Source of the DNA: Eledone cirrhosa
Taxonomy: Eukaryota
Length of the DNA: 64,000 bases
Assembly (NCBI GenBank): GCA_964016885.1
Contig: OZ024749.1
Span: 29,326,001 to 29,390,000 of the forward strand
Direction: 5' to 3'
In this document: positions 53,167-53,260 of the stretch, in pieces
Layout: every line of letters starts with the position of its first letter
How positions within the stretch are numbered: the first letter of the stretch is position 1
Notes under the pieces: model-generated
Seen by the model: the letters and a program-made list of their open reading frames with translations, nothing else
Told to the model about the DNA's origin: nothing
Databases searched by the model: none
Position numbers and translations under genes: made by a program

Positions 53167-53260
53167 ACCCCTTGAGAAGATCGGCTATTTAAATACCAGG
53201 ATAAATGTTCATTTAGTCCAGAATTAGCCGTCGAAACGGCTTGAGCTCAGCTGTCGGGGT
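53167..53260 (+). ncRNA. Type I hammerhead ribozyme, U3:A8 core variant, in the Penelope pLTR (mirror copy 50523-50616 on -)
   Basis: Stem I ACCCC/GGGGT; core TTGAGAA; stem II GA(T)CGGCTA/TAGCCGTC with a long loop; GAAA; stem III CGGCT/AGCTG; cleavage triplet GUC. Confidence 0.75.

Follow-up and report, generated by a model that had tools for sequence, protein, structure and literature searches.

The 64,000-nucleotide stretch of Eledone cirrhosa DNA analysed here (contig OZ024749.1; "the window") contains hammerhead motifs whose catalytic core carries U3 and A8 in place of C3 and G8, and it has to be asked how such cores arose and how strictly they are selected. A preliminary description of the sequence correctly read the cores TTGAGAA at 53172, TTGAAAA at 11544 and TTGATAA at 59377, and proposed that three unrelated families had each undergone a compensatory double change under selection for catalysis. 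The reading favoured here, which is given a probability of roughly two in three, differs from this. The flagged motif would be a type I hammerhead of a young Hydra-type Penelope-like element (PLE), in which U3:A8 stands in for C3:G8 and arose from an unpaired C3-A8 ancestor, with predicted cutting at a GUC site and under weak selection.

The flagged motif of this family, here called family A, lies in an inverted arm antisense to the ORF, so the element transcript carries the identical hammerhead of the other strand (50611-50528), which is located about 1.1 kb past the stop codon and about 20 nt ahead of the (TA)n junction (Table 1). The presence of the core in both arms is no independent support, since the arms are the inverted ends of one insertion. 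The truncated ORF between them retains a CxCx5C linker and the GIY-YIG endonuclease. The minimum-energy fold of 53160-53270 is a type I three-way junction and is no more stable than that of shuffled sequence (z 0.60). The stem III segments of two family A copies pair with each other at -26.3 kcal/mol, as a dimer model requires. Over 12 copies of the wider lineage A, 95% of the cells in stem I, 86.5% in stem II and 98% in stem III are paired (90% overall); two-sided covariation was not found in the stems of these 12 copies.

Table 1. Hammerhead motifs and host elements in the window (positions count from the first letter of the window).
Feature	Position	Strand	Details
Type I hammerhead motif, family A	53167..53260	+	inverted arm, antisense to ORF
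Stem I, family A	53167-53171/53256-53260	+	ACCCC/GGGGU
Core, family A	53172-53178	+	U3-U4-G5-A6-G7-A8-A9 (TTGAGAA)
Stem II, family A	53179-53232	+	long
GAAA, family A	53233-53236	+	
Stem III, family A	53236-53254	+	5 bp, palindromic loop
Predicted cut, family A	53255	+	after C17, GUC site
Identical family A hammerhead, sense strand of element	50523..50616	-	motif 50611-50528, core TTGAGAA 50611-50605
3' terminal repeat (pLTR) arm of Hydra-type PLE	50508..51197	-	(TA)n at border
5'-truncated ORF	51715..52587	-	residues 436-717 of 717-aa family protein, 100% identical to intact copy
Inverted 5' pLTR copy	52586..53275	+	690 nt, 100% complementary to other arm
One-sided "tail" extension of element	53276..53353	+	followed by (TA)n
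Hammerhead, family B	11541..11576	+	core UUGAAAA (TTGAAAA) 11544-11550; stem II GCAG/CUGC; palindrome ACCGGU; predicted cut after 11573 (GUA)
Inverted family B hammerhead copy	11432..11467	-	core from 11464
Short head-to-head remnant, 3' end of Neptune-type PLE, family B	11265..11695		match to L125
Hammerhead, family C	59375..59409	+	core UUGAUAA (TTGATAA) 59377-59383; U-U at 10.1-11.1; stem II GCAU/AUGC; palindrome ACCGGU; GUA site
3' remnant of Neptune-type PLE, family C	59064..59652	+	matches to L170, L155
Canonical C3:G8 hammerheads	20017, 23414/23557, 36863, 42222, 42418, 47260, 47762		
Canonical C3:G8 hammerheads	53497, 53866, 54084, 58021, 60538/60544, 61271, 61793		

Family A is represented by intact elements elsewhere in the 3.0-Gb genome, which is rich in (TA)n and other microsatellites. 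The 40 genomic candidates that were scored are 100% identical over 136 nt, and some are arranged in tandem with a spacing of 3531 bp. These tandem units contain an intact RT-endonuclease ORF of 717 amino acids (counted from the first Met), and the hammerhead lies about 190 nt upstream of the start codon. Direct reading of the protein reveals YRDD and VIY...YIG motifs, i.e., a reverse transcriptase with a C-terminal GIY-YIG endonuclease; a Pfam search of the ORFs gave no useful match, and Atlas look-alikes of the protein at 0.96-0.99 include GIY-YIG and RVT_1 clusters. Tandem pLTRs, an inverted 5'-truncated copy, a one-sided tail and a hammerhead in the pLTR make up a PLE architecture. The Hydra clade of PLEs with a C-terminal endonuclease (EN+) has been described by a DKT motif, an RWK-like motif, a CxCx5C linker, the absence of CCHH and (TA)n targets (Craig et al. 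2021, PMC8557442). The family A protein possesses DKT, RWR in place of RWK and the CxCx5C linker, and lacks CCHH; as in the Hydra clade, CxxC and CxH surround the catalytic E and N, the hammerhead is located in the pLTR, and (TA)n, the target type of the clade, flanks the element. The 3531-bp unit exceeds the length of less than 3 kb given for the Hydra clade, which is a tendency and not a strict rule there (PMC8557442). Family A thus appears to be a young, coding PLE with Hydra-clade motifs, on which its clade assignment is based.

Families B and C, to which the motifs at 11544 and 59377 are assigned, have minimal forms of the hammerhead but share the order of elements with family A: after the core come stem II and GAAA, then stem III with its palindrome, and lastly a GUH site. 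Stem I of family B comprises 3 bp in the copy at 11541..11576 and 3-4 bp in the family, and stem I of family C has only 2 bp beside the core; neither short motif adopts a monomeric hammerhead fold when folded alone. All three motifs are located in PLE terminal repeats. A non-LTR retrozyme, in which each short non-coding tandem unit has a hammerhead, was considered as their host and rejected, as all three sit behind PLE ORFs in longer copies. ORF-linked copies were found at sampled loci L125, L056 and L101 for family B, and at L128, L152, L154-L156, L161, L164, L167, L170 and L174 for family C. The proteins encoded ahead of families B and C share 56-61% identity with one another, compared to about 21% with that of family A, and the motifs at 11544 and 59377 have GAAACCGGTA in common. 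The three families are therefore not all unrelated, as had been claimed; only the one at 53172 stands apart. The proteins of families B and C contain the Cx4CxxC linker of Neptune-type elements; a linker of the Cx2-5CxxC form used to define Neptune and Nematis is present in L125 (B) and L128 (C), and L125 has two cysteines between GIY and YIG. By these motifs, both families would be Neptune-type (Neptune or Nematis). A further U3:A8 family (L130) with the same ACCGGU palindrome encodes a protein 53-58% identical to those of families B and C. Because families B and C are relatives, a single inheritance of U3:A8 from a shared Neptune-type ancestor is likely and is the simplest reading; the Neptune-type tree neither resolved nor excluded a clade uniting B, C and E. 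The three examples in the window thus count as two origins of the swap.

U3:A8 is the consensus of all three families and not a chance mutation. A 26-nt family A pattern, left open at positions 3 and 8 and searched genome-wide, gave 2162 matches, 2138 of them with U3:A8 and none with C3:G8. U3 is replaced in 16 (13 C, 2 A and 1 G, every one with A8), and U3 occurs without A8 in eight (4 G, 3 U and 1 C). In family B, 11,671 matches with U3 face 101 without it, and A8 is present in 100 of the 100 listed matches of either kind. Family C has 1584 matches with a variable N7, and 99 of the first 100 listed are U3:A8. Control counts for the family-specific patterns were 0, and the general pattern YTGANRA-N8-36-GAAACCGGTH had 23,946 matches compared to 344 in the reversed control. 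U3:A8, GAAA, the A15.1-U16.1 pair and H17 (as GUC or GUA) are present in all three window families. C-to-U and G-to-A changes are common transitions, and together with the low z value of the 53160-53270 fold they could suggest decay from CUGANGA, or chance matching, as the source of the cores. This is hardly credible: decay of a C3:G8 family yields single changes only (among the 54 distinct sites first listed, 47 C3:G8, 4 C3-A8, 3 U3:G8 and no U3:A8), the scored family A copies are identical, and neither a C3:G8 core among the 2162 matches nor a match to the control patterns was found. A CUGANGA family consensus, which the preliminary description had named as a refutation of its own claim, is not what these counts show. 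Its warning that searches requiring CUGANGA would overlook these motifs is borne out by Rfam, which gave no hammerhead match among 150 listed of 485 matches in the window and none for 53100-53330 at E values up to 10.

To place the three families in the genome, 120 stretches of 10 kb (1.2 Mb), sampled irrespective of their content and six of them flanking the window, were scanned with a descriptor that allowed any base at positions 3 and 8 and a score cut-off of 12 or more. The 109 matches comprised 66 C:G, 33 U:A, 1 U:G, 1 C:A and 8 others, with 5 matches in the reversed control; six of the U:A matches come from a single tandem repeat and are probably spurious, and the scanner undercounts mismatches, as five C3-A8 copies within the scanned stretches were missed. 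Recurrence at two or more loci was seen for eleven C:G families and four U:A families. A single degenerate pattern covering a U3:A8 family and a C3:G8 look-alike had 98 and 2 of them, respectively, among 100 listed matches (of 864), and no mismatched core among these 100. Positions 3 and 8 thus mostly covary between families, as would be expected if the pair is under selection. No recurrent family was found in which U3:G8 is fixed, and fixation of C3-A8 was seen in just one lineage. The grouping of all A8-bearing Hydra-type families (lineage A, F8 and one copy at L128) in a single clade was rejected in a test with 14 rows and long branches (p-AU 0.0002), so the swap arose more than once. Two further U3:A8 families, F2 (L110:1932, L118, L211) and F9 (L183), are recurrent; no linked protein was found for F2, F9, F12 or F17, and the apparent kinship of F8 with F12 and F17 refers to hammerhead appearance alone. 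At L100, a U3:A8 copy is sister to a C3:G8 family; it did not reappear among the first 54 sites listed and is not treated as a family. The C3:G8 family with GAAACCGGTC has C3:G8 in 40 of 41 cases; no tie to an ORF was found for it, which leaves U3:A8 in the Neptune-type group without a rooted origin.

The usual C3:G8 core is found in most of the other hammerheads of the window, which belong to several other repeat families (Table 1). Two additional core types were seen elsewhere in the genome. A PLE family of another type ends in a hammerhead-like shape with the 5' core CAGUUGA, in which C3:G8 is kept and positions 4 and 6 are changed; it is identical at eight or more loci (L190:3523-3612 on the minus strand, L141, L234, L111, L187, L157, L280 and L163), with an ORF in L141 and L190. 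The closest sampled relative of lineage A (44-55% protein identity) has the core CAGAAGA, with U4 changed to A and C3:G8 kept, in a hammerhead-like end about 0.95 kb past the end of the ORF (L181, minus strand; L199, plus strand). The window also contains a second, divergent Hydra-type 3' fragment at 48610-50440 (+), 32% identical to family A, which adjoins the flagged element across a (TA)n run and carries a canonical CUGAUGA hammerhead with a very long stem II (50289-50399); another long-stem hammerhead begins at 48092. Very short head-to-head remnants of lineage A lie at 17282-17497, 31367-31572 and 56727-56867. Such remnants break within stem II, so that GAAA, stem III and the tail are all that is left of the motif, and these half-hammerheads are commoner than full motifs, a hint that stem II is a place where reverse transcription frequently halts or doubles back. 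Other repeats in the window are an inverted repeat family with copies of 340-590 nt that are 91-100% alike (18886-19488, 30030-30994 and 38696-40512) and a tandem array with a 61-bp unit at 25876-26785, the middle of which is 98-99% identical.

The path by which family A acquired its core can be followed in its relatives. Contigs of run X1 over the motif carry a T-to-C change at 53172 in 24% of the depth and no listed change at 53177, which pointed to a C3-A8 lineage. Relatives of family A with a C3-A8 core are present at four sampled loci (L098, L122, L222 and L253). A pattern for the older part of lineage A had 4558 matches and none in the control; the first 100 listed comprise 75 U3:A8, 25 C3-A8 and no G8 cores, and C3-A8 copies are estimated to number a thousand or so. 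C3 occurs in only 13 of the 2162 matches of the young family compared to 25 of the 100 listed for the older lineage, which argues for a subfamily state and not for recurrent error. The Watson-Crick 3:8 pair is missing in this older C3-A8 subfamily, and the stems remained paired across lineage A, including the C3-A8 copies.

Of 18 copies linked to an ORF end, 17 were used for a lineage-A tree, with the core excluded and L326 dropped because of its short CDS. Nine of the 17 rows come from purposely chosen loci. The tree is a ladder, from which the C3-A8 copies L098, L222, L319, L318 and L317 branch off successively; this ladder lies between an old U3:A8 clade and a young U3:A8 clade that includes the window copy (100/100). 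Two changes in core state are required by branches with good support, and a tree of the CDS only has the same nesting for four of the five C3-A8 copies. Depending on the root, U3:A8 was either lost and then regained or gained twice from C3-A8. The inner branches through the C3-A8 grade total about 0.14 substitutions per site. On one branch of this grade, shared codon differences are 18 synonymous and 3 replacement, compared to 15 synonymous and 21 replacement among changes private to six single copies (Fisher p 0.002), which indicates that the protein was under purifying selection on that branch. These patterns suggest that the lineage probably replicated on its own at a time when the core was, by reconstruction, C3-A8, and that the ancestors of the flagged element likely kept jumping for a long time with the pair broken, C standing opposite A. 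The family A core would then likely have arisen by a single C-to-U repair of a long-lived mismatch, and not from C3:G8 by a double change as had been supposed.

This ancestry also bears on the proposal of three independent double changes from C3:G8 to U3:A8, each under strict selection for catalysis. All three consensus cores are U3:A8, and there were at least two origins among the Hydra-type families in addition to the Neptune-type group, as such a proposal would predict. Families B and C are related, however, family A descends from C3-A8 ancestors, and mismatched cores multiplied (the 25 of 100 listed from 4558 matches), which makes it very improbable.

In the favoured reading, U3:A8 would stand in for C3:G8 and thereby preserve the Watson-Crick pair of the active structure. 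By analogy with PLE hammerheads that have been assayed, the hammerhead is predicted to cut the element RNA after GUC, which would shorten tandem or read-through transcripts to single units. Cutting is probably slow when the motif acts alone and may be aided by the pairing of two copies through the stem III palindrome or by the protein of the element. Selection would favour the 3:8 pair, yet weakly, as the lineage seems to have gone on replicating in its absence over about 0.14 substitutions per site; paired cores would win in the long term, and a lineage could persist without one. Selection for catalysis, as originally invoked, is supported insofar as positions 3 and 8 are mostly C3:G8 or U3:A8 across families, but replication of the C3-A8 lineage implies a weaker selection on the pair than this phrase suggests. 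The C3-A8 core is expected to be near dead, because a natural CUGANAA hammerhead was predicted to be inactive and was confirmed as such in vitro (PMC8490949), and because in a PLE hammerhead single mutants of position 3 or 8 were dead; in that system, the swap partly rescued cleavage, which required the protein (PMC11167929).

If a lineage can replicate with such a core, cleavage might be largely dispensable, the fold being kept for protein binding or priming while the core drifts cheaply between C3:G8, C3-A8 and U3:A8. An autonomous lineage that held C3-A8 with its stems intact fits this explanation, as do other odd cores that are found family-wide in the same genome. In addition, PLE insertion in vitro was independent of cleavage and was not reduced by hammerhead mutations, and RNA ends at the cut site were not found in Anolis (PMC11167929). 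Against this explanation, a search for recurrent families with fixed U3:G8 gave none, C3-A8 is fixed in a single lineage, and lineage A reached or returned to U3:A8. Furthermore, U4, G5, A6, A9, GAAA and the GUH site are constant while N7 and the loops vary. Dispensable cleavage is considered unlikely.

The C3-A8 ancestors might also have avoided the mismatch altogether. In a six-letter core, CUGA-GA, N7 would be skipped, G7 would replace G8 and the spare A would form the usual bulge before stem II. G7 is present in 22 of the 25 listed C3 copies compared to 29 of the 75 listed U3 copies, in which N7 is otherwise C in 17, A in 16 and U in 13 and U3 and A8 are constant; in the tree, G7 is found in each of the five C3 rows, and N7 is variable within the two U3 clades. 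PLE hammerheads typically have one more base between positions 9 and 10.1. The link to G7 can be explained by shared descent, however, and a Fisher p overstates it, since the copies are not independent. A literature search gave no activity for a core without N7, and the natural CUGANAA core was inactive, with N7 not given in the accessible part of PMC8490949. A six-letter core is for these reasons regarded as improbable. In a bolder version, a compensatory swap has been caught midway: an autonomous lineage would have replicated over about 0.14 substitutions per site, kept active by a six-letter core of a kind that has not been described, until U3:A8 was restored by a C-to-U change. This version is regarded as fairly improbable.

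The preferred reading, with U3:A8 reached through an unpaired and weakly selected ancestor, can be compared with several known systems. Natural hammerheads with C3:G8 to U3:A8 covariation were reported in several cases in 2011 (Perreault, PMC3088659), where U3-A8 ribozymes are cited as active in vitro (its ref. 32) and a U10.1-U11.1 mismatch, shared by family C, is described; unlike here, the accessible text links the variant neither to PLE lineages nor to a traced evolutionary path. The Cercyon PLEs of Schistosoma mansoni contain about 1,300 U3-A8 minimal hammerheads, which were missed by a first CUGANGA search pattern (Cervera and De la Pena 2014, PMC4209133). Like the families in the window, they are type I, lie in the pLTR, and have a palindromic stem III and the same core covariation. 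Family A differs in its 5-bp stem III and long stem II compared to the minimal fold of Cercyon, the families studied here are young and near-identical, one with intact tandem elements, and a C3-A8 lineage is not described for Cercyon in the accessible part of that paper. The swap itself has been published before; the new point is the likely long-lived C3-A8 ancestry. Within the Hydra clade, File S2 of PMC8557442 has C3:G8 in 26 of 26 rows, compared to U3:A8 in family A, but the file lists canonical motifs and is therefore no evidence that U3:A8 is missing from the clade. The Anolis Poseidon element PAc (PMC11167929) resembles the elements studied here in a pLTR hammerhead just before or at the start of the ORF and in a tail at one end, and its 3:8 pair is needed for cleavage; it differs in its canonical core, its clade and an insertion in vitro that does not need cleavage. 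The loop 1-loop 2 contact is usually missing from PLE hammerheads (PMC6155905). A search that left out most subscription journals found no report of a replicating C3-A8 lineage and only a single inactive candidate from Schistosoma.

The U3:A8 families of E. cirrhosa add examples to a known variant, and they show the cost of a CUGANGA search, which loses about one third of the sampled hammerhead matches and, genome-wide, copies by the tens of thousands. Lineage A provides a natural series in one scaffold, from old U3:A8 through C3-A8 to young U3:A8, which makes the role of the PLE hammerhead in vivo directly testable. Either retrotransposition tolerates a near-dead ribozyme, or the core bypasses the broken pair in an unrecognised way. 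The C3-A8 series would then be a rare direct record of an intermediate in compensatory RNA evolution.
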